From the IMG/VR virus record IMGVR_UViG_3300007960_000015, positions 1 to 64,000 of that record: a stretch of DNA of 64,000 bases. One strand, written 5' to 3'. The notes beneath the pieces were generated by a model. The model worked only from the letters and a program-made list of their open reading frames with translations. It was not told where the DNA came from and did no database searches. Origin of the DNA: a virus. Positions 28,315 to 41,926 of this stretch are shown in pieces; positions within the stretch are counted from its first letter, which is position 1, and every line of letters begins with the position of its first letter. Both the position numbers and the translations under genes were made by a program.

Positions 28315-28944
28315 ATGGCTCGTCCTTTACAAATTAAATATAATTCTGGCTCATTCCAAGGCATCCAAGAAATTGGATCAAATATGACTTTGGGTGATGA
28401 ATCTACTGCCACTACTAAAATTACTTTTAAGGGGCACACAACTCAACATGGTGAGTTTTATTCACAACATGTTGATACAGATACAGGTTCGCCGAATGCT
28501 GGATATTCTTTCCACTTTAATTCGACAGAAACCTCCACAAATGTAGTTCTTGATAATGGTGGATATTTCATTGGAACTGCTACTTCAGTTGATTATGCGG
28601 ACTTGGCAGAGAAATATTTACCCGATGCAGAATATGGCGAAGGTGTTGTATTAGCTATTGGTGGTGAGAACGAAGTTACTGAATATAAATCAGGCATGCC
28701 TTTAGCAGGCGTTGTTTCTCTTATACCAGCATTTGAAATGAATTCAAGTTTAGAAGGTGGTGTATTTGTAGCACTAAAAGGACGTGTTCCATGTAAGATT
28801 AATGGTTCGGCAAAGAAAGGCGATATTATCATTGCTGATGATAATGGTGCTGGAAAGGCTGTTGATGCTATTACCACATTTGCTGATCAAAAGATTGGTA
28901 TTGCTTTAGAAGACGGTGAGGGAATAATTGAAGTAAAAATTTAA
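28315..28944 (+). CDS. Short fibre-like protein with peptidase G2-like autocleaving domain
   Basis: YADLAEKY..G.VL.IGG..EVT...GVVS..P...VALKGRVPCK..G..KKGD, paralogous to the C-terminus of 12606. Confidence 0.7.
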   Translation: MARPLQIKYNSGSFQGIQEIGSNMTLGDESTATTKITFKGHTTQHGEFYSQHVDTDTGSPNAGYSFHFNSTETSTNVVLDNGGYFIGTATSVDYADLAEKYLPDAEYGEGVVLAIGGENEVTEYKSGMPLAGVVSLIPAFEMNSSLEGGVFVALKGRVPCKINGSAKKGDIIIADDNGAGKAVDAITTFADQKIGIALEDGEGIIEVKI

Positions 28945-28950
28945 TATATA

Positions 28951-29685
28951 ATGATTGGTATTATTGGTTATGGTATGGTTGGCTCTGCCTTAAAAGAAGC
29001 CTTCTACAAAGAAACAATAGTTGTTGTAGATCCTAAATTTAATGATGTAACTATTAAAGATTTAGTTAATCGCAAACCCAAAGCAATATTTGTTTGTGTT
29101 CCTACTCCAACAGATAATTCAAACTACATTATAATAAGAAGTGTTCTGGATGAACTCAAACTCTTATATGATGGTTTGGTTATAGTAAAATCTACAATTC
29201 TTCCTGAAGTTCTTGAACCCTATGATGTTATATACAATCCTGAGTTTTTAAGTAGGGCTACAGCTAAAGACGATATGGTTAAACCTCCGATGGTAGTGAT
29301 TGGTGGTGATTCAGAAGAAAAATGTAACAAGTTGGCTGCATTATATGCGAAGCACTCTATTATTGATTTAAGTAATTTATTCTTTTGTACAGTAAGACAA
29401 GCTTGCTATATTAAATATATGATGAATACATTTTATGCAACGAAGATAACGTTTATGAATGAAATGTATGATATAATTAATTCAGCTGAAGATTTTGAGG
29501 TAGTAACTCAGGCTTGCGCAGCACATCCTTGGATGGGTACACATCATTTTCAAGTACCAGGTCCAGATGGAAAGCGTGGATTCGGTGGCCCTTGCCTTCC
29601 CAAGGATACTAAGGCATTAAATGATATGAATCCGGATTCTTTATTAGGAAAGGTATTGGAGTTAAACGAAACATATAGAAAATGA
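28951..29685 (+). CDS. UDP-glucose/GDP-mannose dehydrogenase family protein (short)
   Basis: GYGMVG; CVPTP; KST; NPEFL; KY..N.F.A.KI.F.NE; GFGGPCLPKD. Confidence 0.85.
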   Translation: MIGIIGYGMVGSALKEAFYKETIVVVDPKFNDVTIKDLVNRKPKAIFVCVPTPTDNSNYIIIRSVLDELKLLYDGLVIVKSTILPEVLEPYDVIYNPEFLSRATAKDDMVKPPMVVIGGDSEEKCNKLAALYAKHSIIDLSNLFFCTVRQACYIKYMMNTFYATKITFMNEMYDIINSAEDFEVVTQACAAHPWMGTHHFQVPGPDGKRGFGGPCLPKDTKALNDMNPDSLLGKVLELNETYRK

Positions 29686-30689
29686 AAACATTATTAGTTG
29701 TAATGAGTGAACAATGCAATTTAAATTGTTCTTATTGCAATGTAGATAAATGGTCAAAGACAAAGATTGACGTTAATACCTTTATAGATTATTATAAAGA
29801 CCAAAGAAAGAAATATCCTGATGAGATGTTTAAGATTGATTTCTTTGGTGGTGAACCCCTCCTGCAGTTTGATGTTATGAAGGATATCGTGGCAAGAACA
29901 GAACACGATCCTTTAGTAAAATATTTTATGCCTACTAATGGATTGGTTATCACCCAGGAGAAATTAGACTTTATAATTGATAAGCAAATAGAAGTATCAT
30001 TATCATTTGATGGTTTATGGCAAGATGATAATAGACCACAATTAAGTGGAAGTGGTACATTAACTAAATACCTAGCCAAGAAAGATATATTAAAACAAAT
30101 TCCTAATCTTAGATGCCACTCTATGATAGGTTCTGGTAATCATAATTTATTAGAAAATCATTTGTTTATTGAAGATGTGTTTGGTGTTGCCTCTGAATTT
30201 ACATTAGTTAGAGACATTGGTATTTGGGATAAAGAAGGTGTTGAATCATTAAAGGAAGGTATAAAGGAATTAATGGAATGGTATTCTGTTAATACCCATA
30301 GAGAAATGCCTTTTTATATACGCTATTATTTAAGACATATGATAATGGCAAAGTATAAACAAGAAGAGGTTGATTCTTGTGGGGCTGGTGAATCTTTATT
30401 TACATTTAATGAAGATAATTCAGTAGTACCTTGTAATAGATTTAAAGATCAACCGGATGTTATTGCGAAGATACCTGAATTTAGAAAGATGTCCCCTTGT
30501 CAAACCTGCGAAGTAAGATCTTACTGCAGAAAGGGATGTTTATATGAGCAGATAAATAATAATGGACCTATTGAAGAATTGTGTGAGATATACAAATATA
30601 CCTATAAAAGTATTGGTCAGCTGGTAGCTAATGTACAGGATGATCCAAACTTCCAAGCCGTAGTGAAGGAGGAAATTGAAAATGGCTAG
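29682..30689 (+). CDS. Radical SAM/SPASM protein 1 (maturase-type)
   Basis: CNLNCSYC; FFGGEPLL; TNG; SFDG; SPASM-type CGAG...PC...CQTC.....CRKGC. Confidence 0.9.
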   Translation: MKTLLVVMSEQCNLNCSYCNVDKWSKTKIDVNTFIDYYKDQRKKYPDEMFKIDFFGGEPLLQFDVMKDIVARTEHDPLVKYFMPTNGLVITQEKLDFIIDKQIEVSLSFDGLWQDDNRPQLSGSGTLTKYLAKKDILKQIPNLRCHSMIGSGNHNLLENHLFIEDVFGVASEFTLVRDIGIWDKEGVESLKEGIKELMEWYSVNTHREMPFYIRYYLRHMIMAKYKQEEVDSCGAGESLFTFNEDNSVVPCNRFKDQPDVIAKIPEFRKMSPCQTCEVRSYCRKGCLYEQINNNGPIEELCEIYKYTYKSIGQLVANVQDDPNFQAVVKEEIENG

Positions 30690-30900
30690 TATTAAACAAA
30701 TGAATAAGGCTTTATTTAAGTCTTCTGCTCATCTATTTGAAGCAGCAAAATATCTATCAAATGTAGAGGAATTTCGTGAAGAGGCGGTGATGCTTCTTGA
30801 AATGGCAGACGAAATGTCTAGTATTATCCAACCTGAAAAAGAGAAAGTATCAAAGGATAAAATGGCCGATATATTATCAGAGATTACAAAAAATGCATGA
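30682..30900 (+). CDS. Small helical hypothetical protein between the two rSAM/SPASM genes
   Basis: ATG 30682 downstream of AAGGAGG; overlaps both neighbours. Confidence 0.6.
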   Translation: MASIKQMNKALFKSSAHLFEAAKYLSNVEEFREEAVMLLEMADEMSSIIQPEKEKVSKDKMADILSEITKNA

Positions 30901-32029
30901 AATAAGTAACCAATTTACGTTAGAAATTACCACAGCAGCTCTATGTAACTTAGACTGTACTTATTGCTTTGAAGGTGCAAAGACAAATAAGAGACGTTTA
31001 GATACAGAACAAGTAGCAGCCTTGAAAAAAAGAATCTATGATTTTTTAGATAGTGATTTCTTTAAAGATAATTACGACAATCTGAATATATCTTTTTGGG
31101 GTGGTGAACCCACTCTAAATCCTGATTTAATTATTAACATTATGCAAGAGTATCAGCATATAGACAATGTCGGTTTCCATATTTACACTAATGCTTATGA
31201 AAGAAGAAGATTAGATAAGATTGTAGATAATATTGATAAGAGTAAACTTAATGTACAGATATCATATGATGGCCGGGATATTAATGATGTGTTTAGAGTA
31301 ACTGCTACTGGTAAGTCATCTGCTGATAAAGTATTAGAGAATCTTGAATACTTTGCTAAGAAAGGTGTTGCTATTTCGATGAAATCGACTATACCTCTTA
31401 AATCAATGAGAACATTATATTCTACTTGGAAAGACTTTGAAAGAATGTATGAGAAGTATAATGCTATTGGTGATCATGTACAAATATCTTATGCCCCTAC
31501 TATTGACTATGTTGATGAATTACCTAGAGATGAAGCAGAAAAGCTTGTTGAAATATTCCGTGAGCAGATGATTAAAGTTGCTGCCGAAGAAATTAAATTT
31601 GTTAACAAACACCAAAGACATTTATGCACTTGGTTTAATGGTTCTGATTCCAAACAGCATTGTGCTGCTGGTGCACACATGCATGCTATTGATGTGGATG
31701 GTAATAGTTATGCTTGCCATGGTGCTTTATACTCTCCTAATAAAGAAAAGATGCACGGAGGTAATATTGAGGATGAAAACTTTATAAATAAGATTGAGAA
31801 GATGAGTAATGAATATTCATCAGTAATTGGCCGCGGAGTAAGCGACGTCTGTAAAGACTGTGTCGCTACAACGTGTATGATTTGCCCGGTAGCCTCATTC
31901 GATATGAGTAATAAAGAAGACCACATGGATAGGTGGACCGATAGATGGGTAAACAACATGTGCGGATTTTTTAAGGCGTTTGGAGAAATAGATAGAACAG
32001 TTCAAGCGCATTTAGACGGAGATTTATAA
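30893..32029 (+). CDS. Radical SAM/SPASM protein 2 (maturase-type)
   Basis: Likely start ATG 30893 (MHEISNQ); CNLDCTYC; FWGGEPTL; ISYDG; CAAG..C..CKDC....CMIC. Confidence 0.9.
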   Translation: MHEISNQFTLEITTAALCNLDCTYCFEGAKTNKRRLDTEQVAALKKRIYDFLDSDFFKDNYDNLNISFWGGEPTLNPDLIINIMQEYQHIDNVGFHIYTNAYERRRLDKIVDNIDKSKLNVQISYDGRDINDVFRVTATGKSSADKVLENLEYFAKKGVAISMKSTIPLKSMRTLYSTWKDFERMYEKYNAIGDHVQISYAPTIDYVDELPRDEAEKLVEIFREQMIKVAAEEIKFVNKHQRHLCTWFNGSDSKQHCAAGAHMHAIDVDGNSYACHGALYSPNKEKMHGGNIEDENFINKIEKMSNEYSSVIGRGVSDVCKDCVATTCMICPVASFDMSNKEDHMDRWTDRWVNNMCGFFKAFGEIDRTVQAHLDGDL

Positions 32030-32748
32030 TGGCATGTTCAGGAAGTCATTGCAGTAATCATGGAACTGGTACTTCTACTTGTTCCAACCATAGAGGTACT
32101 TGCTCTACTAACAGGGCTTATAGCCCCTCTAGTGAGTTCACTGGAGGTTCAATTACAGCAGCAGATATCAATCTACTAAGAACTAATATTAGAGATGAGA
32201 TAACACGTTATAATCTTCATGCGGATCATTCTCACACACTACGCCAGGGCTCTGCTTATCAAACATCAACTGTAATAGATAATGCTCATATTAATGATAT
32301 GGAGCAAATGGTATATGATGGTGAGAATAGAAAAGAAAGAGTTGGATCTAACTATGCATCTGTAGCTGGTGCTACTACCTGGGGTAATAAATCTATATCT
32401 TCATATTCGGAAGGTTCTGTAATTAATGCATCACACTGGACAACACTTAAATCAAGATACGATAATCTAAGAACAGATTGTATATGTAATTCGGATTGTT
32501 CATGTAATCTAGTTTGTGCTTGTCATAATGACTGTGGTTGTAACTACTCTGATATTAGATTAAAGAGAGAGATTCAATTCCTTGAAAAACGTGGTGATAT
32601 TAATTATTATTCATTTAAGTATATTTGGGATAATGTTAGAAGAACTGGTGTTATGGCACAAGAGATTCTTGAATCTAAGTGGAAAGATGCTGTGAAACAA
32701 GATAAGAAAGGTTATTATATGGTAGACTATTCAATGCTGCCTCAATAA
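32029..32748 (+). CDS. Cys-rich fibre-like protein with (CxCxxx)4 array and C-terminal S74 chaperone
   Basis: N-terminal C3/C8/C18/C25; I.A.HI/W..L repeats; CICNSDCSCNLVCACHNDCGCNY then SDIRLK...Y.F.Y...GVMAQEI...V...GY..VDYS. Confidence 0.8.
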   Translation: MACSGSHCSNHGTGTSTCSNHRGTCSTNRAYSPSSEFTGGSITAADINLLRTNIRDEITRYNLHADHSHTLRQGSAYQTSTVIDNAHINDMEQMVYDGENRKERVGSNYASVAGATTWGNKSISSYSEGSVINASHWTTLKSRYDNLRTDCICNSDCSCNLVCACHNDCGCNYSDIRLKREIQFLEKRGDINYYSFKYIWDNVRRTGVMAQEILESKWKDAVKQDKKGYYMVDYSMLPQ

Positions 32749-32764
32749 AAAAAGGAGTTATATT

Positions 32765-33376
32765 ATGATGCTTTATGAACTCGCGTTGGTCGAAGACCGC
32801 GGATCCTATTGGTTTGTTACAAACGTAACAAGAAACACCCTAGACAATTTAGCAGAGGAAGGAGAAACAGTCCTTAAACTTTCTGCTAACTCATTTAAAA
32901 TTATTAGTGATGCTATCAATGATGGTAAGGCTGTACATATTACAAAAACACGTATGGCTAGTGAAGTACTACCAATGGAGATTGAGGTACTAGATCATAG
33001 TGAGACTGATCCATTAGATGAAGCTAGAAAGGCAGCTCTTATTAAGGTTAGAATGTTAGTTACGCCTGAGTTAGCTAAAATATCGGGTTTCGCATTATAT
33101 GGATTTATGATGCTTAATAATGATCTGGCTAATGCAGGATTCTTTATTACTAACGATAATAGGGAAGAGAAGTATCTCTCTATTCTTGAAACAGGTAATG
33201 AAGATTTAATTGAGAAGTTAGAAGATTATTTAAATTATAAAGACGAGATTGAAAATGTAGCTCATCTAGAAAGAAAGTTTTCTAAATTCAAAAAAGATCT
33301 TAGAATTGCAACCACTGTAGAGGATGTACAAGGAATCCAAGATAGATTCCTAGATAAATTCTATTCAAATTTCTAA
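32765..33376 (+). CDS. Hypothetical protein (possible partner/chaperone of the Cys-rich fibre)
   Basis: AAGGAG RBS; 203 aa; helical C-terminus ending I..ATTVEDV..I, reminiscent of fibre assembly chaperones. Confidence 0.55.
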   Translation: MMLYELALVEDRGSYWFVTNVTRNTLDNLAEEGETVLKLSANSFKIISDAINDGKAVHITKTRMASEVLPMEIEVLDHSETDPLDEARKAALIKVRMLVTPELAKISGFALYGFMMLNNDLANAGFFITNDNREEKYLSILETGNEDLIEKLEDYLNYKDEIENVAHLERKFSKFKKDLRIATTVEDVQGIQDRFLDKFYSNF

Positions 33377-34170
33377 TGAGACTTGCTGTAGTCTATAAGT
33401 TTAAAAATCATAATAAACTTAACGGAACACTCTTTTATTGCTACGAATACTATAGAAAATTAAGGGAAAGTTATCCTTGTACAAAGTTTGTTATTATAGG
33501 CATTGAACCTGATAATATTAAACTTATTGAGAAGGTATTTAAAGAAAAGTATAATAACTTTTATCCGATGGATATCATTCCATTCAAATCAGTAATTAGT
33601 TTATGGAAACAAAAGTTTGATCGAACTCTAATATTGGACATTGATACCTTTTATCAATGTAAAGAGTTTTGCACTAACGAAGTCCATGTGTTTAGTAATG
33701 ATACTCATGAGATGTATCGATACCCTGATGATAGACAAGTAACATACTATGGTGTGTATCCATACCAAAGATTCGATAAAGAATGTATGTTAAAACTCAA
33801 CTTTAATATAATGACTCCGGCTCAGAATAAACCTGGTGTGTTTGTTTCCTGTTTAGATATGACTCATCTAAAAAATAATATAAACAGATATGAAAGAGAG
33901 TTTCAAAGGCCTATTATATTAAAGAAAAGTCATGAGGGGTCTGGTTCAATTTTTGATGAAATTAACCAGGTGCATTATGTCCATGTACAAAGAGATACAA
34001 ATAATAGAATTATACCCGAAGCATTCTTTCATAATAAGAAACTAACAATAGAAGAAGTATATAATGAAGATGATTCTATTATGAGGCGATATAATGATAT
34101 TATTAATAATGGATTAGATAATTATACTTTAAGTGATAGTGATTTGATGATTAAGGCATGTCTGCGATAG
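33376..34170 (+). CDS. Putative GT-B glycosyltransferase-like protein
   Basis: C-terminal NRIIPEAFFHNKKL resembles the GT-B E-motif region; distant paralogue of 34158. Confidence 0.4.
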   Translation: MRLAVVYKFKNHNKLNGTLFYCYEYYRKLRESYPCTKFVIIGIEPDNIKLIEKVFKEKYNNFYPMDIIPFKSVISLWKQKFDRTLILDIDTFYQCKEFCTNEVHVFSNDTHEMYRYPDDRQVTYYGVYPYQRFDKECMLKLNFNIMTPAQNKPGVFVSCLDMTHLKNNINRYEREFQRPIILKKSHEGSGSIFDEINQVHYVHVQRDTNNRIIPEAFFHNKKLTIEEVYNEDDSIMRRYNDIINNGLDNYTLSDSDLMIKACLR

Positions 34171-35036
34171 TAAAATTAGAAAATAAAGATCTTTGGCTTA
34201 CCTATTCATGGAGTAATAATAACCATGGAATATGTGGACATACCTATGAAGTTATTGATTATTGGTATATCTTAAAAGATAAAATGAATGTGGGTATTGT
34301 CTTATGTGAAGACATTGACTCAGATACATTATTTAAAGCTGTGAGGTGTAGATATAACTTTAATACTTTAGAGATATCGGAATTAGAAAACTCAGTTGTA
34401 TTTCATAATAGACCAAAGATACTTACTGGAGGCTCTAAAATATTATTTACAGATGGTGGTATTGTAAATATGAGTAATGTCACATTATTATATGATAAGA
34501 TATATTATATGGCTTGTGGTAATAAACAGGTAAAAGATAATAATAAAGATAATGTGTATATTCTACAAGATGATAGAGTATATGAGAGAGTTAAAAAGAA
34601 TGGAATACATTATGTTAAGAAGATTCTATTTGATAAGTTAAAGAAGCCAAGAGGGCAGTTAAATAATACTTTGGTTTATGGAACTAAGAATTGCAGACAT
34701 ATTGAAGATTATAGTGATTTACATCAATATGGCAATCTTTTAATTGTAACTAATAAAGAGAATAAACCTAAGGGATTGGTATCACTCCAGCCTCCAGTGC
34801 CTGATATATTCAGATTATTTAAGACATATGTGTATACACCAGTAGCTAGGAAATGGGATTGTTCTCCAAGATTTTTAGCAGAATGTGTATACTTCAATAA
34901 AGAAGTTATCTTTCATAATATAGATTATTGGGAAGAGGATCACGGATTAAGAGTTAGATGGGACGATATCCAAAATAATTTTGAGAGTTTATATCTTAAA
35001 GAAGATGATCCAATAATAGAGATTTTAAATGATTAG
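34158..35036 (+). CDS. Putative GT-B glycosyltransferase-like protein
   Basis: YVYTP...WDCSPRFLAECVYFNKEVI. Confidence 0.4.
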   Translation: MSAIVKLENKDLWLTYSWSNNNHGICGHTYEVIDYWYILKDKMNVGIVLCEDIDSDTLFKAVRCRYNFNTLEISELENSVVFHNRPKILTGGSKILFTDGGIVNMSNVTLLYDKIYYMACGNKQVKDNNKDNVYILQDDRVYERVKKNGIHYVKKILFDKLKKPRGQLNNTLVYGTKNCRHIEDYSDLHQYGNLLIVTNKENKPKGLVSLQPPVPDIFRLFKTYVYTPVARKWDCSPRFLAECVYFNKEVIFHNIDYWEEDHGLRVRWDDIQNNFESLYLKEDDPIIEILND

Positions 35037-35862
35037 CATTGAGATTATCGAAGGCTGTAATTTTAAGTGTTACTTTTGTGCGGCCAAAGATATTGACAAA
35101 TATAAGTTTATGGATATTGATGTCTTTAAGAAAGCTGTGCTTGAGGCGAGGGAACTAGGTATTAAGACAGTTGATATGATTCCTTCCAGAGGTGATCCAT
35201 TTCTTCATCCGCACATTTATGAGATGTTAGACTTCATAAATGAGCATATGGAAGAGATTTTAATATTTACTAATGCTACTCCTGTTAATGTAGCTAAGCT
35301 AAGTCAGTGTAATCTATCCCACACTATATTATCCATCTCTCTTTATGGAAAGACAACAGAAAAATTTATTGAGTTAACAAAGACAGATGAGAGAATGTTT
35401 AATAAATTTAATAAAAAGCTGAGGGAACTAGATGAGGCTGGTATAAAATATAACATAGAGAGAAGGGATGAGGACTATGAATTCGATACTCATGGAGTAG
35501 CAAAAAACGATTTTGATGCGTCTCAGAAGTGTAAATTTCATCATATACCGAAGATTCTTGTGGATGGTAGTGTAACATTCTGCCGTACTGCCTGGAGTAG
35601 TAATGGTCTTTCTATTGGTAATCTATCTAACAAAGACCTACATGATATGTTATCAGATCCTATAAGATATAAGTTTATGGACTCCCAAAGTATATGTGAA
35701 CATGCATGTGATTCATATGAGATTAATTGTAACACAAAGACAACATTCGCTGCTATAAAACTGATGAGTGAAAGCAGAGCTAGATACTTAAGTAGTCATG
35801 TTGATACTGAAATTAGATATAAGAAATTAGAAAATGAGACTATACAACGAACTGAGTCATAG
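35029..35862 (+). CDS. Radical SAM protein 3 (Twitch/SPASM)
   Basis: CNFKCYFC; GDPFLHP; TN; C...DGSVTFC..IGNL..C...C. Confidence 0.88.
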   Translation: MISIEIIEGCNFKCYFCAAKDIDKYKFMDIDVFKKAVLEARELGIKTVDMIPSRGDPFLHPHIYEMLDFINEHMEEILIFTNATPVNVAKLSQCNLSHTILSISLYGKTTEKFIELTKTDERMFNKFNKKLRELDEAGIKYNIERRDEDYEFDTHGVAKNDFDASQKCKFHHIPKILVDGSVTFCRTAWSSNGLSIGNLSNKDLHDMLSDPIRYKFMDSQSICEHACDSYEINCNTKTTFAAIKLMSESRARYLSSHVDTEIRYKKLENETIQRTES

Positions 35863-36841
35863 AGAAATTGAAATAGATTATGATACTCCATATTGTAATC
35901 GTGGTAAATTAGATACAGGAACTCACTGTAACTATCGCTGTGGCTTTTGTTATTACTATAATCAGTTAGACCAGAAGACTCCCTTTAAGGAAGTTAAAAA
36001 AAGAATAGATCATTTGGTTGAATGTGGTATTGCTGAAGCAGATTTATCTGGTGGTGAGAGCTCTATACATGCAGACTGGTTTAATATCCTGGATTACTGT
36101 AAAGAAAAAGGATTGAAAGTTTCTTGTCTCTCAAATGGATCAATGTTTTCTAAGTATGAATTTTTAGAGAAATCAAAGCAGCATGGATTAGATGAGATAC
36201 TTTTTTCTTTACATGGCTTTGATGAAGAAAGTCATAATAAATTAGTTGGTGTTAAGGCCGGCTTCAGAAAGATAACTCAATCAATAGTGTTTGCAAATCA
36301 GTTAGGTATTAAGGTAAGACTTAATTGTACTGTAACAAAAGACAATTATAAGGAACTAGATAACAAGTTTGTTGATCTTGTCCATCAGTTTGATGTAGCA
36401 CAAGTTAATTTTCTAACTCTAAACTATTGGGACGATGCAAATGCACAGGATGCATTCCCATATAAGGAAGCAACAGAGTCAATAAAAAGAGCTATTGATA
36501 AGTTAGAAGTACCAGACAAAAGAGTACGTTATACTCCCTTCTGCTATCTTAAGGGTTACGAAAAACACCTCTTCGGGTATTATCAACATATCTATGACCT
36601 CTCTGATTGGAATATCGCTACCTATGGACATACTATTGATCCGAGAGAGTATGTCGGTAACGAGTTAAAGCATTTATATTTAGCTGCTGAGAGGCAGAGA
36701 AACGCAACTTATAAGAAAAATAAAGAGTGCCTGGATTGTAAACATTATTATATCTGTGATGGATATGAAAAGAAACATGGTGAACTGGAAGTGTTTCCAG
36801 AGCCTGGGGAAAAGATTAAGAAGGTAACACATTACTTATGA
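35834..36841 (+). CDS. Radical SAM protein 4
   Basis: CNYRCGFC; LSGGE; SNG; SLHG; PFC; CLDC.....CDG. Confidence 0.88.
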   Translation: MRLYNELSHREIEIDYDTPYCNRGKLDTGTHCNYRCGFCYYYNQLDQKTPFKEVKKRIDHLVECGIAEADLSGGESSIHADWFNILDYCKEKGLKVSCLSNGSMFSKYEFLEKSKQHGLDEILFSLHGFDEESHNKLVGVKAGFRKITQSIVFANQLGIKVRLNCTVTKDNYKELDNKFVDLVHQFDVAQVNFLTLNYWDDANAQDAFPYKEATESIKRAIDKLEVPDKRVRYTPFCYLKGYEKHLFGYYQHIYDLSDWNIATYGHTIDPREYVGNELKHLYLAAERQRNATYKKNKECLDCKHYYICDGYEKKHGELEVFPEPGEKIKKVTHYL

Positions 36842-37479
36842 ATATTCTAGTTATTGGTGGTGGCGAATATGGAAAGTTCGGCAACGACTTTGTAATAAAG
36901 GCAAGAGAAGATGGACATAGAGTCCTTGTCTTATCTCATAGAAGAAGAGCAGATGATCCAGATCAGGTTATTGCTAACTTCACATCAACAAATGATATTA
37001 TAGAGAAGGTAAATTTTTTATGTAAATTAGTTGACCAAATCGATATTATGTTGTATAATACATCTGCCGATGGGGAGCCCAGGGTGCCTATAGCCTATAC
37101 GAGTGGTGGTGTTATTAATGAGAGTCTTTATCTGTTTAACTTCAGACTTCATGCTGTTATTCCTCATGTAATTGCTAATACTGTAATGGAATATATGAGG
37201 GGCGGAAAGATGATCTTTATTACTACCGACATGATTCATGATAGAGAAAGAAGTAAGTATCTTGAGAATGTTGGTTATTGTGGCGGTAAGGCATTCCAGC
37301 ATCAGTTAATGTTAGCGTTAGCTGAATATAATGATAGGAACTTAACTGTATCTTCTATCTCTCCTTTCTTTGATTATAATAATAAAGAGTGTTATAAGTC
37401 AGTATTTGATGCCGCATACAATTATATTTTTGATCATGGAGAAGAGATGAATGGAAAGATATTCGAGTGTTTTGATTAA
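36838..37479 (+). CDS. Short-chain dehydrogenase/reductase-like protein
   Basis: N-terminal ILVIGGGEYGKFG; IDIMLYN; YCGGK (YxxxK). Confidence 0.65.
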   Translation: MNILVIGGGEYGKFGNDFVIKAREDGHRVLVLSHRRRADDPDQVIANFTSTNDIIEKVNFLCKLVDQIDIMLYNTSADGEPRVPIAYTSGGVINESLYLFNFRLHAVIPHVIANTVMEYMRGGKMIFITTDMIHDRERSKYLENVGYCGGKAFQHQLMLALAEYNDRNLTVSSISPFFDYNNKECYKSVFDAAYNYIFDHGEEMNGKIFECFD

Positions 37480-38114
37480 TGCATGATGATTACTACCTTG
37501 GTGGATATGATGATGAAGGAACATACACCTTATATGTTACCTATAAGTGTAACTGGAGATGTGACTATTGCTCAGAAGATACATGGAATAGACCGAGGGT
37601 TAATAACCTGCAGGAGAAACTTGACGCCATTGTAGAAGGATCGGATGTATCAATTACTGGTGGAGAGCCAGGTATCCTTCCTAAGGATATAATGGAAGAT
37701 GTCATTAGGCAACTGAAAGAAAAGAAATGTATAATAAATGTCAATACAAATGGAACATTTTTTAAGAGGTTTAAGTATCTTGATGAACAGGTAGATAGTT
37801 ATCTCTATCATTGTTCAGAGCAATTAGAGGATGAAGAGATTATTATCCCTGACATTGATCAGAATAAGATACAATACATGTTAGTCATTACAGATGACAA
37901 TATGGATAGGTTAGAATATTATGTAAGTAAGTATCCTAATATAAACTTTTTAGTGTTTGGAGCTGATAATGTTATTGGTAAAGGACTATCAAGGAAGAAT
38001 GGTTTTGAGATATCAAGAAAGTACAGGGGAAGGATAGATGATGATTCACATATACATTTGATTACAACCTGCTGGGAAGTAAATCAGATGAGGAATCTAA
38101 GAGCATTACGATGA
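37479..38114 (+). CDS. Radical SAM protein 5 (minimal)
   Basis: CNWRCDYC; ITGGEPG; NTNG; YHCSE. Confidence 0.88.
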   Translation: MHDDYYLGGYDDEGTYTLYVTYKCNWRCDYCSEDTWNRPRVNNLQEKLDAIVEGSDVSITGGEPGILPKDIMEDVIRQLKEKKCIINVNTNGTFFKRFKYLDEQVDSYLYHCSEQLEDEEIIIPDIDQNKIQYMLVITDDNMDRLEYYVSKYPNINFLVFGADNVIGKGLSRKNGFEISRKYRGRIDDDSHIHLITTCWEVNQMRNLRALR

Positions 38115-38683
38115 AGGAAGTAGAATTATCATTAACTAATAAGTGTCAATGGCACTGTGATTATTGTGTAGCTGATATACATAATCAACCTCTTCGTAAA
38201 TATAAAGATGTATTAGAAGATGCGAGGAATATATTACCTAAAACAGAAGTAACTTTTTCTGGTGGTGAGCCTGGCCTTCTTAAAAGAGAACAGATTAAGG
38301 AGTTAATTTCTATACTGGAAGAAAAAAACTGTCCGATAGATCTATTAACTAACGGACTTTTCATAAAGAGATTTCCTGATTTATTAAAACATTTTGGAAA
38401 GGTTCATTATCATTGTGTAGAATATATCGGAGATGACATTGAATTTCCTAATAGAGATGATGTAATATATTGTGTTGTGGTTGAAGATAAGAACTTATTA
38501 GACGGAAGTTTAATTAAGATGATTAATAGATATCCTCATATTAAATTTTTAACTTTATTTGACGTAAGGAACCAACACAAGATTAATCTTAATAATATGA
38601 AGAAGTTTGTTAATGAATATAAAGATAAGATACATCCTACGGCTTTAGATGAATTCATTACTGTAGTGAGTAGGTGGCATTGA
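38111..38683 (+). CDS. Radical SAM protein 6 (minimal)
   Basis: CQWHCDYC; FSGGEPG; LTNG; YHCVE. Confidence 0.88.
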   Translation: MKEVELSLTNKCQWHCDYCVADIHNQPLRKYKDVLEDARNILPKTEVTFSGGEPGLLKREQIKELISILEEKNCPIDLLTNGLFIKRFPDLLKHFGKVHYHCVEYIGDDIEFPNRDDVIYCVVVEDKNLLDGSLIKMINRYPHIKFLTLFDVRNQHKINLNNMKKFVNEYKDKIHPTALDEFITVVSRWH

Positions 38684-39288
38684 TGGCTATACAAGCGAAA
38701 GAAAAAGAAATTGAATTAGTTATTACTTGGACTTGTCAATGGCATTGTGAATATTGTTGTGTAGATACTCATAACAGGCCTAAATTATCTTTTGATGAAG
38801 TTAAAAAGAAATTAGATAAAATTATACCCGGATATAATGTGACATTATCTGGCGGTGAACCTGGTGCTCTAAAAAGAGAGCAATTAGAATTTTTATTAGA
38901 TGAGCTTGAGAAGAGAGGATGTGAACCTTCTATCAATACTAATGGTTTATTCTTAAAGAAGTATCCAGATCTTATTGATAGATTCGCCACGATATTGTAT
39001 CATTGTAGTGAAGATATTAATTTGGATGATCCATTGTTAATAGGTGATTATGAATATCTATTAATAGTAACCGATAATAACTTTGAAAGGCTAGGACCAT
39101 TTTTAGACAAGTATCCGGATATACAATTTAATTTAGTAGCTGCTACCAATCCGAAGGGAATATACGGTGTTACTTTATCTATTGAAAACAAACATAAAAT
39201 GTTAAAACTATACCATAATAGAATGACTAAAGAATCTATTAAGAGAGTATTTAAAGAGAAAGATTTTGATGCAATCACCTATCTATAA
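38683..39288 (+). CDS. Radical SAM protein 7 (minimal)
   Basis: ATG 38683 (TGATG coupling); CQWHCEYC; LSGGEPG; NTNG; YHCSE. Confidence 0.88.
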   Translation: MAIQAKEKEIELVITWTCQWHCEYCCVDTHNRPKLSFDEVKKKLDKIIPGYNVTLSGGEPGALKREQLEFLLDELEKRGCEPSINTNGLFLKKYPDLIDRFATILYHCSEDINLDDPLLIGDYEYLLIVTDNNFERLGPFLDKYPDIQFNLVAATNPKGIYGVTLSIENKHKMLKLYHNRMTKESIKRVFKEKDFDAITYL

Positions 39289-40153
39289 AGAACAAAATAA
39301 AGAAGACATAATCAGGATTGAATTAGAATTAACTTCTCTTTGCAATCTTAAATGTCCCTTATGTGTAAGAGAAACATTTCCGGTTGCCAAATATGATACA
39401 AGAGGGTATAATAGTATTATTGAGCAATTAAATGAGTATTCGAATCTTAAATTTGTAACTATAGCCGGTGCGATAAGTGAACCTACTAGTCATCCCGATC
39501 TATTTAAAATAATACAGTATCTTAATGATAGAGATATTGAAATTTCATTATACATTAACGGTGATACTAAAACAGATTTATATTACTCTAAATTAGGATT
39601 AATATTTAGGGGATGTAAGGGCCATGTCTATTTCACTATTGCTGGATCAACACAAGAACTCCATGAGAGATATAGAGTAGGATCAGATAGACAAAGGGTA
39701 TTAAGGCGTTTAGATTTAGTTAACAAATATTCTGGTAATAAAGGCATATTAACGTGGTTGGTATTTAATTATAATCAGGAGGATTTTGAACAGAACTATC
39801 AATATTATAAAGACAGATATAATACTGAGTTCTTTCATACTCTTCCTTTCCAAGAACATTTTAATTGGGATATAGATATACACCTACCTAAAAAAGAACA
39901 TGAATTGTATATAACTCAGATTAATAGAAATGTATATCCAACAACTTGCGTATCTAATCAAAATAACTTTGTACAGATATTACATGATGGGGAGGTAACT
40001 CCCTGTTCTTTATATAGACTCCATGGTGAAAAACATTGTTGGGAGTGCCATAAAGAAAACCTGGATATGTTAAGAAAGAATAAGATTTATAATATAGCAG
40101 AGAGTGAAACTGAGACCTCTGAAATACCATTAAGGTTGTATTATGATTGTTAG
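39269..40153 (+). CDS. Radical SAM protein 8 (Twitch-like)
   Basis: ELTSLCNLKCPLCVR; GAISEPT; TIAGSTQELHERYR; C..DGEVTPC..CWEC. Confidence 0.88.
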   Translation: MQSPIYKEQNKEDIIRIELELTSLCNLKCPLCVRETFPVAKYDTRGYNSIIEQLNEYSNLKFVTIAGAISEPTSHPDLFKIIQYLNDRDIEISLYINGDTKTDLYYSKLGLIFRGCKGHVYFTIAGSTQELHERYRVGSDRQRVLRRLDLVNKYSGNKGILTWLVFNYNQEDFEQNYQYYKDRYNTEFFHTLPFQEHFNWDIDIHLPKKEHELYITQINRNVYPTTCVSNQNNFVQILHDGEVTPCSLYRLHGEKHCWECHKENLDMLRKNKIYNIAESETETSEIPLRLYYDC

Positions 40154-41054
40154 TAAAGCGGATATTGAAGAAATAGAAATGGATTTGGTGGGGATGTGTA
40201 ATCTATCGTGTCCTCTGTGTACTAGAAATTATGTTCATGCAGAACATATGCTATCTAAAAATGTACGCCATATTGATGAGATAATTAAACAATTAGATCA
40301 ATATCCCAACTTACAAAGGTTCTTTGTTGCTGGCGCTGTATCTGAACCTACTATGTACAAATACTTCGATGAATTTATTGATTATTTAAATAGCAGAGAC
40401 ATATATTATGAAATATTCACTAATGGTAATACAAGAAGTGAAGATTGGTGGTATCAATTAGGACAGAAGGTTCCTTCAAAATGTTTTACAGCATTTACTA
40501 TATGTGGAAGCAATCAAGAAATGCATGAGAAATATAGAGTAGGTTCTTCATTAGATGAAATCCTAAGGCATGCCAGGGCTTATAGAAAGGCCGGAAAGAA
40601 TAATGATATGATACAAACTATTAGATTTGATTATAATAAAGAAGATTTAGAGTCATCTCAAATGAAAGAACTTATTGATGAGTTCTCTCTTCATCTTCCT
40701 GTTGATACTGAAGGAATAAGAAGGCGTAATGAATATCAAGAAGATGTAGCAGATGGTGTACAGCCCATTGAGATTAGAGATCAACTTATTAAACAATTAT
40801 TTGCGAGAAGACCTAAACCAGATGATGGAAAGGAATATACTATACAATGTAACTCCATAAAGAATAAAAAAATATACATTAATCAATATGGACAGGTAGC
40901 TGCTTGTTATATCCACGCAGAGAATGAACAGGATTATTTTGACGATGTAATGGATTATGGTGATATTTTAGAATTTAAATACCCGGATTGTTTTGTATGT
41001 GAAAAACAAACGAGAACATTTATTGAAAAAATGGGATTAGAATTTATATGTTAA
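40143..41054 (+). CDS. Radical SAM protein 9 (Twitch-like)
   Basis: CNLSCPLCTR; GAVSEPT; TICGSNQEMHEKYR; C..GQVAAC..CFVC. Confidence 0.88.
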   Translation: MIVSKADIEEIEMDLVGMCNLSCPLCTRNYVHAEHMLSKNVRHIDEIIKQLDQYPNLQRFFVAGAVSEPTMYKYFDEFIDYLNSRDIYYEIFTNGNTRSEDWWYQLGQKVPSKCFTAFTICGSNQEMHEKYRVGSSLDEILRHARAYRKAGKNNDMIQTIRFDYNKEDLESSQMKELIDEFSLHLPVDTEGIRRRNEYQEDVADGVQPIEIRDQLIKQLFARRPKPDDGKEYTIQCNSIKNKKIYINQYGQVAACYIHAENEQDYFDDVMDYGDILEFKYPDCFVCEKQTRTFIEKMGLEFIC

Positions 41055-41926
41055 TTGAAGAAATTGAAATTGAATTAACCTCTATATGTAATGCGAAATG
41101 CCAATTGTGTTATAGGAATTATAAAAGTTATAAGCCCACTAAAATCATTAGACCTATTGATGATGTTATATCTCAATTGGATAGTTATAAGTCACTTAAA
41201 CGCATTAAATTAGTAGGAGTAGAATCGGAGCCTACTATCCATCCTGAGTTTCTTAAATTGATTACTTGGCTAAAATCAGAGGATATTCATATTGAAATAT
41301 GTACTAACGGCGATACTAAAACACCTGCCTTTTGGAGAAAATTGGGTATACTATTAGATAAGGACGATGAAGTTTATTTTACTATATGTGGAAGTACTCA
41401 AGAGCTACATCAAAGATATAGAAGAAATACCAGATTAGATAAAATACTTAGGAATGCGGCTGCTATGAGGGAAGCAGGAAAGCCGACCGATTATGCACAA
41501 TGTATTAGATTCTCATATAATGACGAGGACTTTAATAGTAAGAAATTTCAGGATATGGTATCTGTATTCTCCAACGTCTATTGGACTGAAACCTATCTCC
41601 ATAAAGATTTAAATAATTATGTTGATATTGAAGGGATGGAATATTTAACCCCACCTATACAAAAGCAAGATAGTTATTATAAGGTAGAATTATTAGCTGA
41701 TGCTTTATATAAAGCAGATGGATTTAAAGAGACATTATGTATGGCTGAAGAAAGTAAGTCGATTCAGATAGATGTTCATGGTAATCTATATCCGTGTTAT
41801 CTTCATAAAGAAGCTGATATTCCGTGGACGGGTGAGTATGGAAGTGGAGAGATTGAAACATGCAAGTTTTGTATTAAAGGCGTTAGACAATTATGTCATG
41901 ATAAACAATTGGAGTATGTAATATGA
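41048..41926 (+). CDS. Radical SAM protein 10 (Twitch-like)
   Basis: ELTSICNAKCQLCYR; GVESEPT; TICGSTQELHQRYR; C..GNLYPC..CKFC. Confidence 0.88.
   Translation: MLIEEIEIELTSICNAKCQLCYRNYKSYKPTKIIRPIDDVISQLDSYKSLKRIKLVGVESEPTIHPEFLKLITWLKSEDIHIEICTNGDTKTPAFWRKLGILLDKDDEVYFTICGSTQELHQRYRRNTRLDKILRNAAAMREAGKPTDYAQCIRFSYNDEDFNSKKFQDMVSVFSNVYWTETYLHKDLNNYVDIEGMEYLTPPIQKQDSYYKVELLADALYKADGFKETLCMAEESKSIQIDVHGNLYPCYLHKEADIPWTGEYGSGEIETCKFCIKGVRQLCHDKQLEYVI

Follow-up and report, generated by a model that had tools for sequence, protein, structure and literature searches.

Ten radical SAM genes of an aquatic T4-like phage belong to a conserved and mobile cassette shared with predatory bacteria

Why should one phage carry ten radical SAM genes? 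The window analysed here, the first 64,000 nucleotides of the IMG/VR virus record IMGVR_UViG_3300007960_000015, holds ten such ORFs at 29682-41926, the positions reported by a first-pass annotation of the same DNA, all on the + strand and each with one N-terminal CxxxCxxC. All ten pass the PF04055 gathering score of 29.5 (32.6-67.3 bits), and PF04055 matches nothing else in the 79.5-kb virus record (genes are named below by their first coordinate):

29682..30689, + strand, putative radical SAM/SPASM enzyme 1 (PF04055; canonical seven-Cys SPASM pattern)
30893..32029, + strand, putative radical SAM/SPASM enzyme 2 (PF04055; CX2CX4CX2C variant)
35029..35862, + strand, radical SAM singleton with a partial SPASM-like C-terminus (PF04055; five C-terminal Cys)
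35834..36841, + strand, radical SAM singleton with the widest conservation of the ten (PF04055, 67.3 bits)
37479..38114, + strand, minimal radical SAM paralogue 1, 211 aa (PF04055; orthologue clade of 4 rows)
38111..38683, + strand, minimal radical SAM paralogue 2, 190 aa (PF04055; separate orthologue clade)
38683..39288, + strand, minimal radical SAM paralogue 3, 201 aa (PF04055; separate orthologue clade)
39269..40153, + strand, Twitch-like paralogue A (PF04055; C-x18-C-x10-C-x2-C; clade A, which includes bacterial copies)
40143..41054, + strand, Twitch-like paralogue B (PF04055; clade B)
41048..41926, + strand, Twitch-like paralogue C (PF04055; clade C; 37-38% identity to CP220 gp080)

The division of the ten into a SPASM pair, two singletons, a minimal triad and a Twitch-like triad, also made in that annotation, is borne out by Cys patterns and by pairwise identities (36-43% in the minimal triad, 32-39% in the Twitch-like triad, 27% over ~158 residues for the SPASM pair); the motifs SEPT and FTI.GS.QE.H..YR, which it had singled out, are invariant across the Twitch-like triad. 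Its proposal of tandem duplication and divergence holds for the origin of the paralogue sets, but not for duplication in situ: in phylogenies every paralogue groups with its own orthologues from other phage contigs, and in both triads orthologues are 47-75% identical as against 32-43% between paralogues. The minimal triad forms three clades, each common to several phage contigs, and the Twitch-like triad three strongly supported clades, each with copies from other phage contigs, Halobacteriovorax and Peredibacter; the order A-B-C is the same in phages and bacteria. Because each paralogue has its own orthologue clade, closer to it than the other paralogues are, the sets must have been passed on as one block, by inheritance or transfer. 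Nor does each gene belong to a distinct, characterised host family: none of the ten proteins reaches the cut-off of a curated NCBIfam family, so that their chemistry can be read by analogy only.

What had been missed is the larger conserved cassette around these genes, which is also found in bacteria. It comprises ~27 tightly packed genes over ~20 kb (28315-48602) of this aquatic T4-like phage, and joins the ten radical SAM enzymes to sugar-tailoring enzymes (PseB-, PseC-, BshB-, CE4-, GalE- and UGDH-like, with GT-A-like and GT-B-fold proteins), an SxtG/StrB1-type amidinotransferase and a small, Cys-array fibre-like protein with an S74 chaperone domain. In this phage it is a single co-directional, operon-like block, with intergenic gaps of <=16 nt throughout 28315-48106 and overlaps of 1-29 nt between genes across most of its length. 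Its start and its less readily classified members are the following:

28271..28289, + strand, two tandem TATAAATA motifs, possible T4-type late promoter, 33-44 nt 5' of the first cassette gene
28315..28944, + strand, first cassette gene, small protein whose C-terminal half resembles phage tail-fibre C-termini (phrog_22593, phrog_19602 'tail fiber protein')
33376..34170, + strand, conserved protein, 264 aa, with orthologues in phage and bacterial cassettes
36838..37479, + strand, protein judged SDR-like only by inspection (Rossmann-like N-terminus, YxxxK motif), with orthologues in L003, L010 and their relatives
45133..46546, + strand, two conserved proteins (45133-45777 and 45788-46546) with orthologues in phage loci, 45133 also in bacteria

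A late-type promoter possibly drives the cassette. The motif is not enriched in the window (17 observed versus 17.8 expected by chance), its only suggestive features being a 16:1 strand bias and its placement ahead of gene starts. Orthologues of 28315 open the cassette in loci L016 and L076-L080, and it shows no detectable similarity to the gene that opens the bacterial cassette. No family match was obtained for 33376 (Pfam and PHROG searches), for 36838 (Pfam and NCBIfam) or for the two proteins at 45133-46546, and profile searches did not confirm a kinase-like assignment of 45133. Upstream of the cassette, the window holds tail-fibre genes and another S74 protein. The adjacency to fibre genes may merely reflect the usual hypervariable region of T4-like genomes.

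The cassette is conserved and horizontally mobile. Its order is kept in at least eight other viral contigs, at 45-75% protein identity, and it is present in three Bdellovibrionota chromosomes (including Halobacteriovorax and Peredibacter) with eight radical SAM genes, where it adjoins a pilin-like S74 protein. Aquatic phages and these chromosomes share the order and identity of ~20 genes; among the radical SAM genes, the SPASM pair, 35834 and the Twitch-like triad have chromosomal orthologues in Halobacteriovorax and Peredibacter.

What might the SPASM pair act on? The assignment of both proteins to the SPASM class is suggested by their Cys motif and by full-length alignments to SPASM families; the Pfam SPASM model matched neither at E<=0.01. 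The best NCBIfam match of 29682, which has the pattern C-x17-C...CX2CX5CX3C...C, is the PapB ranthipeptide maturase (110.8 bits versus a cut-off of 340), while 30893 scores 107.3 bits against PapB, aligns full-length with anSME, SCIFF and CXXX-repeat maturases and has CteB (5wgg, E 8.6e-12) as its nearest solved sequence. The best families of the pair are all maturases of Cys-containing peptides or proteins: PapB, QhpD, SCIFF, CcpM, CXXX-repeat and anSME. Orthologues of 29682 in Halobacteriovorax and Peredibacter are 44-49% identical, and 30893 shares 30% identity with CP220 gp136 over 95% of its length. Three genes accompany the pair:

30682..30900, + strand, 72-aa ORF between the SPASM genes, with same-position orthologues (37-64% identity) in phage loci and Peredibacter
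32029..32748, + strand, Cys-array protein (PF13884): eight-Cys array, then an S74 self-cleaving chaperone domain
32765..33376, + strand, conserved protein (phrog_25260) whose position is conserved, always following the fibre-like gene

The 72-aa ORF has no Pfam or PHROG match, and ESM Atlas models (scores <=0.84) provide a weak lead that 32765 may resemble tail-fibre assembly proteins. The 32029 protein consists of an N-terminal C..HR Cys cluster, a helical middle, four CxC pairs (period 6) ending in ...CNY, and the S74 domain; its structure model (pLDDT 53) is too poor for showing a fibre fold. The eight-Cys array is kept in 12 distinct orthologues from a family of 190 unnamed members, orthologues devoid of S74 stop precisely at ...CNY, the predicted cleavage point, and bacterial copies terminate in ...CGCHY. 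The Cys-array gene and the SPASM pair occupy the same cassette position in phages and bacteria, and most SPASM-bearing loci with a 32765-like gene have a C-terminal Cys array encoded just 5' of it. SPASM genes and array are both absent from L005 and L006, and in two differently built loci a SPASM enzyme likewise accompanies a CxC...NY array (CP220, with gp140 near gp136, and contig L004); the divergent loci L012 and L082 have SPASM-like genes and no recognisable array. Alternatively, the array could be a metal site, T4 gp37 having HxH iron sites, or could acquire normal disulfide bonds once the cell has lysed.

Against the SPASM model 35029 scores 20.9 bits, slightly below the cut-off of 21.5; its homologue in CP220 is gp087, and it is absent from bacterial cassettes. 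The second singleton, 35834, is found in almost all related loci (47% identity to bacterial copies, 48% to CP220 gp163), with SuiB, viperin-like, PqqE and BlsE as nearest solved sequences. The minimal triad lacks a C-terminal Cys domain and has just two conserved Cys, spaced 27 residues from each other; the family profile (38683) matches the MoaA core and QueE (5tgs), and 38683 shares 36% identity with a radical SAM protein of a CPt10-type phage. In the Twitch-like triad, the auxiliary Cys pattern is C-x18-C-x10-27-C-x2-C and both cluster-cysteine sets are kept in all three clades, which argues against dead scaffolding copies and would fit the divergence towards sequential steps or hetero-oligomers that the first-pass annotation proposed. 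A model of the bacterial orthologue of 40143, poorly resolved in its C-terminal half, has BlsE, SkfB and MoaA as nearest folds. Sugar or nucleotide enzymes (BlsE, MoaA, viperin, BtrN) lie near it, and the peptide maturases SkfB, CteB and SuiB are equally near (TM ~0.5). Because both kinds of enzyme fit at equal TM, only co-occurrence assigns the triads to sugars rather than peptides: Twitch-like enzymes are found together with an amidinotransferase and a GT-A-like protein in phages, CP220 and bacteria. The sugar-related genes of the cassette are:

28951..29685, + strand, short nucleotide-sugar dehydrogenase-like protein, 244 aa (PF00984 and PF03721; N-terminal and central domains only)
34158..35036, + strand, compact GT-B-fold glycosyltransferase-like protein (phrog_24441; ESM Atlas structure search)
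41923..42714, + strand, short PseB-like UDP-HexNAc 4,6-dehydratase, 263 aa (PF02719, E 6e-64)
42708..43307, + strand, very short DegT/PseC-like aminotransferase, 199 aa (PF01041; SFxxxK lysine motif retained)
43292..44116, + strand, relative of CP220 gp082, gp088 and gp089 (phrog_23758; 35% identity to gp088)
44103..45155, + strand, small-molecule-type amidinotransferase (SxtG 1e-29, HsvA 4e-29, StrB1 6e-26, AGAT 5e-23)
46548..47453, + strand, NAD-dependent sugar epimerase/dehydratase (PF01370, E 5e-45; CP220 gp158 homologue)
47450..48106, + strand, PIG-L/BshB-like de-N-acetylase (PF02585; BshB1-like, 56 bits; CP220 gp157 homologue)
48024..48602, - strand, CE4-type polysaccharide deacetylase (PF01522, 23.4 bits versus a cut-off of 23.1)

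The short enzymes 28951 (114.7 bits against TIGR03026, cut-off 189.8), 41923 (129 bits against TIGR03589 PseB, cut-off 408) and 42708 may not be fully functional; in bacterial cassettes DegT is full-length (355-382 aa), the Peredibacter copy scoring 382.6 bits against PseC (cut-off 423.5). Scores of 46548 are GalE/UXS/ArnA-like and below cut-offs. In ESM Atlas 34158 has TM values of 0.65-0.70 to GT4/BshA-type models; its bacterial orthologues are 47-53% identical and its match to CP220 gp077 is weak. The CP220 record gives gp088 and gp089, relatives of 43292, a nucleotide-diphospho-sugar transferase (GT-A) fold (SSF53448). The amidinotransferase is 42% identical to CP220 gp086 and 54-57% to bacterial copies. 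The last conserved cassette gene, 48024, is kept at the cassette end in phage loci, and a Polysacc_deac_1 protein also occurs in the bacterial cassette and as CP220 gp156.

How could these parts work together? From the observed gene content, paralogy, orthology, synteny, co-occurrence and fold or family resemblance we tentatively infer, with a probability of about 45%, a joint pathway maturing fibre-type adhesins, including all its substrates, all its reactions and the fibre-like protein as target: the Cys array would receive cross-links from the SPASM pair, and other radical SAM enzymes would act in the tailoring of an amino or guanidino sugar. The cassette would be made of separable modules. 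In the first, 29682 and 30893, with the 72-aa ORF, would modify the protein encoded by the neighbouring 32029, S74 self-cleavage exposing the eight-Cys array as its mature C-terminus. The likeliest chemistry would be Cys-to-carbon thioether cross-links of the PapB/CteB/QhpD type, which could hold the fibre together covalently in the cytoplasm, a reducing compartment that does not allow disulfides. The second would assemble a deacetylated amino or guanidino 6-deoxy-hexosamine and transfer it, using the PseB-like dehydratase, DegT-like aminotransferase, amidinotransferase, epimerase, two deacetylases, and GT-A-like and GT-B-fold proteins. The Twitch-like triad, with 35834 and 35029, may perform radical tailoring of this sugar (oxidation, decarboxylation, epimerisation or dehydration, as in BtrN, BlsE and DesII), each ancient paralogue presumably serving a different step or site, and the minimal triad would be a phage-side addition.

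Would the same genes suit envelope glycan remodelling instead? An unusual cationic sugar could be placed on the lipopolysaccharide, capsule or pili of the infected cell or of the predator itself, serving for instance in superinfection exclusion or self-protection; the Cys-array protein would then be an unrelated small fibre that is linked by chance. PseB-, PseC-, epimerase-, deacetylase- and GT-like genes are typical of surface-glycan loci, and a type IV pilin-like gene, a common glycosylation target, adjoins the bacterial cassette. However, profile searches detected no flippase, polymerase, undecaprenyl-phosphate transferase or oligosaccharyltransferase in the cassette, the Cys-array gene and SPASM pair hold their position in phages and bacteria alike, and co-directionality with structural genes and the possible late promoter suit virion maturation better; we consider this reading unlikely.

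A diffusible aminoglycoside- or guanidino-sugar-like natural product is also doubtful, since searches of the cassette turned up neither a cyclitol or inosose synthase nor genes for export or self-resistance, 45133 is not confirmed as kinase-like, and fibre-type proteins are consistently part of the cassette. The parallel is with the established butirosin and streptomycin pathways, whose logic the aminotransferase, StrB1/SxtG-type amidinotransferase, Twitch-type enzymes, GT4-like transferase and PIG-L deacetylase resemble. A similar DegT-like/radical SAM/amidinotransferase trio in cyanophage S-SCSM2R was guessed in 2025 to represent 'antibiotic synthesis genes' (PMC12801897).

Decoration of phage bases by the sugar and radical SAM enzymes, evading restriction, is very improbable. 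T4-like phages do glycosylate their DNA, and thymidine hypermodification in some phages uses radical SAM enzymes. The DNA of CP220 is fully modified, but its base is a 7-deazaguanine made by FolE/QueD/QueE/QueC-type enzymes and DpdA, not by cassette genes (10.1101/2023.04.13.536721). Moreover, searches of the cassette, which resides in bacterial chromosomes beside a pilin-like fibre gene, revealed neither a DNA transglycosylase nor a nucleotide kinase nor a DNA-binding domain, and SPASM-like matches in Salmonella and Erwinia jumbo phages are just 21-26% identical. That independent accessory genes piled up in a hypervariable region with no joint function, as the 5 to 10 radical SAM genes per locus, the 1-3 copies of the minimal triad, the ORFs inserted in some loci and the scattering of the CP220 set over three loci could suggest, is hardly credible given the ~20 genes with common order and identity in aquatic phages and Bdellovibrionota, the constant A-B-C order and the 1-29 nt overlaps through most of the block.

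If the cassette does mature fibre-type adhesins, how does it compare with known systems? Like the trimeric S74 fibres of phages and the MAT fibres of Bdellovibrio (Caulton et al. 2024, PMC10769870), where S74 fibres serve prey recognition, 32029 has a Peptidase_S74 C-terminus with an SD..LK cleavage motif, and the same kind of protein adjoins the cassette in predators. Unlike them, it would be ~170 aa long when mature, versus typically ~1000 aa, is predicted to be largely helical in a low-confidence model, and has at its mature tip a Cys array of a kind not described in PMC10769870.

SPASM thioether maturases (PapB, the SCIFF enzyme CteB, QhpD, anSME) share with 29682 and 30893 an N-terminal radical SAM core and a seven-Cys SPASM, and in RiPP operons, as here, a Cys-rich substrate candidate is encoded adjacently. 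Scores, however, are ~1/3 of the cut-offs (~110 versus 340 bits), no recognisable RRE/PqqD domain was found, the candidate substrate is a 180-270-aa protein with a self-cleaving chaperone domain rather than a short leader-core peptide, and there are two paralogous maturases instead of one.

The Twitch-like triad resembles BtrN, BlsE, MoaA and SkfB in size (~300 aa), in its single C-terminal four-Cys pattern (C-x18-C...C-x2-C) and in top fold matches; no significant sequence match to these four was obtained, the sole PDB sequence match being GDGT-MAS (5.5e-5). Pathways for 2-deoxystreptamine aminoglycosides have the same neighbours as the triad: an aminotransferase, a GT4-like transferase and a PIG-L deacetylase. 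Unlike usual Twitch-domain enzymes, the triad carries SEPT in place of the GGE motif and consists of three ancient paralogues in fixed order.

Relatives also occur in Campylobacter phages, for which the first-pass annotation had rightly noted a radical SAM expansion: CP220 and CPt10 (Firehammervirus) encode 11 and 12 such proteins (Timms et al. 2010, PMC2853527), and several of the ten have true homologues there. For 13 of the 27 cassette proteins CP220 has homologues, among them Twitch-like gp080, gp083 and gp084 (30-38%), gp087 (35029 type), gp163 (35834 type, 48%), gp136 (second SPASM type, 30%), the amidinotransferase gp086 (42%), GT-A-like proteins, an epimerase and a PIG-L deacetylase, while the minimal type occurs in CPt10-type phages (36%). 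It also has a Cys-array protein, gp140, ~2 kb from its SPASM enzyme. The differences are that its genes lie over at least three loci with one SPASM enzyme instead of two, that its array is a long tandem heptad within a protein of 534 aa, not four C-terminal units preceding S74, that those of its Twitch-like copies included in the tree form a separate clade, and that hosts and habitats differ. This spread over aquatic phages, Campylobacter phages and predatory bacteria offers a route to testing the function of radical SAM genes in phages.

Ten radical SAM genes, arranged in paralogue sets, had been claimed for this region by the first-pass annotation, and both points hold. There are ten such ORFs, all on the + strand between 29682 and 41926 and designated here by their start positions, with one N-terminal CxxxCxxC motif each. 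All ten pass the PF04055 gathering score (32.6-67.3 bits against 29.5), and they are the only PF04055 matches in the whole record. They fall as follows:

29682 and 30893, + strand: SPASM pair
35029 and 35834, + strand: two singletons
37479, 38111 and 38683, + strand: minimal triad
39269, 40143 and 41048, + strand: Twitch-like triad

The sets were borne out by all-against-all BLASTP, with identities of 36-43% within the minimal triad, 32-39% within the Twitch-like triad and 27% over the radical SAM core of the SPASM pair; the motifs quoted for the Twitch-like triad (SEPT and TI.GS.QE.H..YR) are invariant in all three members. C-terminal cysteine patterns also agree with the SPASM and Twitch-like labels. 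The protein 29682 has the canonical seven-Cys SPASM pattern, CX2CX5CX3C with further flanking cysteines, and 30893 a close variant, CX2CX4CX2C. Neither matches PF13186, the Pfam SPASM model, at E<=0.01, yet both align full-length to SPASM families. Each Twitch-like protein has a short C-terminal domain and a single auxiliary-cluster motif, C-x18-C-x10-27-C-x2-C, whose four cysteines are invariant in ten members of the family, bacterial ones included. The minimal triad proteins have no auxiliary domain, and 35029 and 35834 show partial C-terminal Cys motifs. If one auxiliary cluster is assumed for each of these two, a motif count yields an estimate of about 19 [4Fe-4S] clusters, so the earlier remark that the Fe-S demand would be substantial is fair. 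No Fe-S assembly (PF01521) or ferredoxin (PF00111) gene was found in the record, an uninformative absence since only about 44% of the genome is represented.

No curated NCBIfam cut-off is reached by any of the ten proteins with any model; a mapping of each gene to a distinct, well-characterised host family, which was to count against the original reading, is therefore not what we see. The SPASM pair is nearest to PapB (NF047865), with 110.8 and 107.3 bits against an equivalog cut-off of 340: these enzymes may work like PapB but, with such scores, are not members of its family. The next-best families (QhpD, SCIFF, CcpM, CXXX-repeat and anSME) are maturases of Cys-rich peptides or proteins, and the nearest solved structure by sequence is CteB. 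SPASM-like matches in Salmonella, Erwinia and Proteus jumbo phages, at 21-26% identity, were uninformative. The Twitch-like triad scores 21-31 bits with NF033640 (twitch-domain radical SAM), under the cut-off of 170, and has no solved close relative by sequence. A model of the bacterial 40143 orthologue finds BlsE, SkfB, MoaA, CteB, viperin and BtrN as its nearest folds (TM about 0.5), the top Foldseek matches, BlsE, SkfB and MoaA, having E-values of 6e-9 to 1e-6. The C-terminal half of this model has a pLDDT below 50, and the matches, read on its well-modelled core, suggest the class of the enzyme, not its substrate.

About 600 unnamed metagenome proteins make up the family of the minimal triad, whose likeness to MoaA and QueE is confined to the core. 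We rejected an identity as QueE or as a glycyl-radical activase (COG0602-like), as scores remain below the cut-offs for QueE (24-27 bits against 206-260), NrdG2 (27-36 against 131) and PflA (19-23 against 232). H-atom chemistry is hinted at, and no more than that, by a YHC motif conserved in the triad and by weak similarity to the epimerase YydG/EpeE. The singleton 35834 resembles SuiB, viperin-like enzymes, PqqE and BlsE. A prokaryotic viperin (pVip), which would have suggested a defence or anti-defence role, was also rejected: 35834 scores best, at 65.7 bits against the NF038283 cut-off of 180, and the PADLOC pVip matches cover the radical SAM core alone and are generic.

The ten genes sit inside a larger block, 28315-48602, encoding 27 proteins, which we call the cassette. 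From 28315 to 48106 its genes overlap or are separated by gaps of at most 16 nt. Two TATAAATA motifs lie directly upstream of the block; the count of this motif in the window is not above chance, and we use it as a weak positional hint. The other members of the cassette are listed here.

28951-29685: nucleotide-sugar dehydrogenase, short, C-terminal domain missing
32029: Cys-array protein
34158: compact GT-B-fold protein
41923-42714: PseB-like dehydratase, short, 263 aa
42708-43307: DegT/PseC-like protein, very short, 199 aa, lysine motif kept
44103: amidinotransferase, SxtG/HsvA/StrB1/AGAT type
Further sugar enzymes: GalE/UXS-like epimerase, PIG-L/BshB-like deacetylase, CE4 deacetylase
Homologue of the GT-A-annotated CP220 gp088
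Remaining members: several conserved unknowns, and a small protein whose C-terminal domain is of tail-fibre type

The three short sugar enzymes (28951, 41923 and 42708) fall well below the length of their counterparts in cells; they have phage orthologues 46-63% identical and are thus conserved genes; the DegT counterparts in bacterial cassettes are full-length, at 355-382 aa versus 199 aa in the window. The amidinotransferase aligns with characterised members over about residues 55-345 of 350 (E 1e-29 to 5e-23), and its Pfam ADI score is 18.3, below the cut-off of 22.8. For 32765, ESM Atlas scores of at most 0.84 provide a lead towards a tail-fibre assembly protein. We found no family support for a kinase-like identity of 45133 or an SDR identity of 36838.

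The IMG/VR record is 79.5 kb long and estimated to be 44% complete, the window being its first 64 kb. With a G+C content of about 33%, the window carries genes for baseplate wedge, tail-fibre, PAAR and tail-sheath proteins of T4 type; the sheath protein shares about 51% identity with the sheaths of Pelagibacter phage HTVC008M and Methylophilales phage Melnitz. The PAAR-type N-terminal domain (phrog_281) occurs in a 547-aa protein (55051-56694), typical PAAR proteins being much shorter. Upstream of the cassette, in the region of the tail-fibre genes, 20322-21170 encodes another small protein with an S74 chaperone domain (282 aa; PF13884, E 2.5e-17). It is followed at 21527-25949 by three large ORFs of 363, 477 and 431 aa around a 189-aa ORF; none of the three has a Pfam match, and the 477- and 431-aa ORFs have no PHROG match. 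Two transporter parts, unusual for a phage, lie about 25 kb from each other: a DctP-type TRAP solute-binding protein (26017-26964; PF03480, E 3e-46) and a TctA-family tripartite tricarboxylate transporter membrane protein (51487-52788, - strand; PF01970, E 4e-36). Just beyond the conserved cassette, 27003-27845 resembles 2OG-Fe(II) oxygenases weakly (PF13640, 21.3 bits, under the cut-off of 27).

A near-complete stretch is present in freshwater-labelled metagenomes, and a relative occurs in a marine run (X10), where matching pieces are 90-95% identical to the window and about 34.9-38.9 kb is uncovered, an uninformative gap with no bridging contig. Two salt-marsh studies yielded RNA-library contigs, mostly 90-97% identical, that span the Cys-array/32765 region and genes 35029 to 38111; they may hint that related cassettes are transcribed, DNA carry-over being possible. 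A megablast search of deposited phages with the region gave no DNA-level match. At the protein level, searches with the triads recovered many viral contigs, of which at least eight carry the cassette in matching order with 45-75% protein identity and 5-10 radical SAM genes. A regex tally of radical SAM ORFs per locus undercounts (two versus five in CP220) and was not used for numbers. In three related loci (L003, L010 and L078) the homologues of 41048 and 41923 are separated by an additional ORF of about 505 aa, which is absent in the window; unmatched ORFs of 200-500 aa occur in other loci as well, so that cassette content is plastic.

When one genome per prokaryote species was scanned, close relatives turned up in four records only: two Halobacteriovorax, a complete Peredibacter chromosome and a short Sulfurovum-binned contig. 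The three Bdellovibrionota loci keep the cassette order, with eight radical SAM genes. They begin with SPASM1, SPASM2, the Cys-array protein, three unknowns including the GT-B protein, and 35834; they continue with three Twitch-like genes and a distant fourth, the amidinotransferase, the GT-A-like gene, a 45133-like gene and a full-length DegT; and they end with PIG-L, another radical SAM gene, the CE4 deacetylase and the epimerase. The minimal triad and 35029 are absent from all three. A 72-aa ORF between SPASM1 and SPASM2 (30682 in the window) was detected in Peredibacter only, and homology of the first bacterial cassette gene to 28315 was rejected (BLASTP E 2.4). Housekeeping genes border the bacterial cassettes on one side; on the other, the neighbour is a type IV pilin-like protein that carries an S74 domain. 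The Peredibacter total of open frames with such a domain is 22. Our literature search found no paper on the bacterial cassette.

Did the paralogue sets arise by tandem duplication in place, as first proposed? In an IQ-TREE phylogeny, the Twitch-like proteins form three strongly supported orthologue clades, each with phage and bacterial members, and the two CP220 copies included form a separate clade. The minimal triad likewise forms three orthologue clades common to phage contigs. Since these clades span phages and, for the Twitch-like set, bacteria, the phylogeny indicates that the duplications are ancient and that the sets move together as one block. The paralogue sets do exist, but they are old and lie within a mobile cassette. 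The Twitch-like tree is midpoint-rooted, so the direction of transfer between phage and predator is not readable from it. Both sets of cluster cysteines are retained in all three Twitch-like clades; this suggests that all three are active as enzymes and are not scaffolds.

The gene following the SPASM pair, 32029, encodes a protein of 239 residues with an N-terminal Cys cluster that includes a conserved C..HR motif, a middle part predicted to be helical, and an array of eight cysteines in four CxC pairs, with a period of six, ending in CNY. An S74 chaperone domain with its usual SD.RLK start comes directly after the array. Where a PapB-family maturase would have a neighbouring Cys-rich precursor with Cys-X-Asp-type motifs, the SPASM genes adjoin a Cys- and Asp/Asn-rich array carried by a 239-aa protein. 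The array is conserved in 12 distinct orthologues, and no member of the family (190 proteins) has a functional name. An AlphaFold model of 32029 was too poor for a fold search (pLDDT 53). Forms lacking the S74 domain (in loci L011, L013, L016 and L017, and in Halobacteriovorax) end at the predicted cleavage point or two residues beyond it; judged from these sequences, the array is therefore the predicted mature C-terminus. The Peredibacter gene (L088 about 5430-5550; chromosome 1273569-1273679) stops a few residues into an S74-like motif and is followed by a separate 98-aa open frame with the rest of the domain, which looks like a split or decayed chaperone domain. In RNA-library contigs of related phages (runs X7 and X9), some 184 unrelated letters stand in place of about 180 nt of the S74 region (window 32564-32747), so that divergence is quicker in the chaperone domain than in the Cys array or the next gene.

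Arrays and SPASM enzymes tend to occur together. A C-terminal Cys-array ORF precedes the 32765-like gene in most SPASM-bearing loci that have this gene, whereas L005 and L006 have neither SPASM genes nor array, and a Cys-free S74 protein in that place. L004 pairs a SPASM enzyme with a CxC...NY array in a 426-aa protein, and in CP220 the hypothetical protein gp140 (L166:2152-3756, 534 aa) has a tandem (C-x-C-x-C-N-Y) heptad array about 2 kb from a SPASM gene. Exceptions to the pairing are the most divergent loci, L012 and L082. The 21-bp 'Repetitive region x.1-x.6' annotated in CP220 in 2010 is the coding sequence of the gp140 array.

We propose, with a probability of roughly 0.45, that the cassette is a joint maturation pathway for fibre adhesins, for which we infer all substrates and reactions. 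The SPASM pair would form thioether cross-links in the Cys array, as PapB, CteB and QhpD do in their substrates; such cross-links would be a covalent stapling able to form in the cytoplasm. In the sugar module, a UDP-HexNAc would become first a 4-amino and then a guanidino 6-deoxy sugar, followed by transfer and deacetylation. The combination of GT4 and PIG-L enzymes is the logic of bacillithiol, mycothiol and aminoglycoside pathways. Two rivals are live: the cassette may remodel envelope glycans, or make a diffusible aminoglycoside-like product. In a T4-like cyanophage, DegT-like, radical SAM and amidinotransferase genes were termed antibiotic synthesis genes, their role being left open (2025, PMC12801897). 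DNA hypermodification, or the absence of any joint function in a block whose order is kept in phages and bacteria, are lesser alternatives. Under fibre maturation, the Twitch-like triad, 35834 and 35029 would perform radical tailoring of the guanidino/amino sugar. We group them with the sugar enzymes because the amidinotransferase and GT-A-like genes accompany them even where SPASM/Cys-array genes are distant or absent (CP220, L005 and L007). A more specific version, in which phages and predatory bacteria alike use SPASM thioethers in the Cys-array tip of a self-cleaving adhesin while the other radical SAM paralogues build an attached cationic guanidino-amino sugar, is unlikely to hold as a whole; if it did, the adhesin would be the first virion structural protein matured by radical SAM enzymes.

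If fibre maturation is correct, the reach of radical SAM peptide chemistry would include the adhesins of virions and predators, and it would define a new way in which receptor-binding proteins are covalently stabilised and decorated with sugar. Should it fail, the cassette is still unusually rich in uncharacterised radical SAM subfamilies, as none of its ten members reaches a curated family. The question becomes testable through the compact form, through the Cys-array partner and through the copies in predator genomes that were deposited as isolates, not as MAGs (Peredibacter sp. HCB2-198 and Halobacteriovorax spp.).

No explanation has been given since 2010 for the many radical SAM genes that CP220-type Campylobacter phages carry. 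CP220/CPt10-type phages have 11-12 such genes with no assigned function (PMC2853527; PMC3322345), and the first of these papers confirms the earlier statement that Campylobacter phages have radical SAM expansions of unresolved function. A keyword search of the main text of the IBB_35 proteome paper found no statement on the relevant proteins as virion components. In CP220, 13 of the 27 cassette proteins have homologues, which are spread over three loci. The first is the published module, where five radical SAM genes stand with the amidinotransferase and GT-A-like genes; the second combines a 35834-type enzyme (48% identical) with an epimerase and with PIG-L and polysaccharide deacetylases; the third has a SPASM2 homologue. 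Twitch-like, amidinotransferase and GT-A-like homologues are all present, 30-42% identical, and CPt10-type phages have a minimal-type enzyme. In the window this gene set is compact and ordered, and two groupings become visible: the SPASM enzymes go with a fibre-like protein that has a Cys array, the Twitch-like enzymes with an amidinotransferase and with proteins resembling glycosyltransferases. The cassette is a variant of the CP220-type radical SAM expansion, a known yet unexplained kind.
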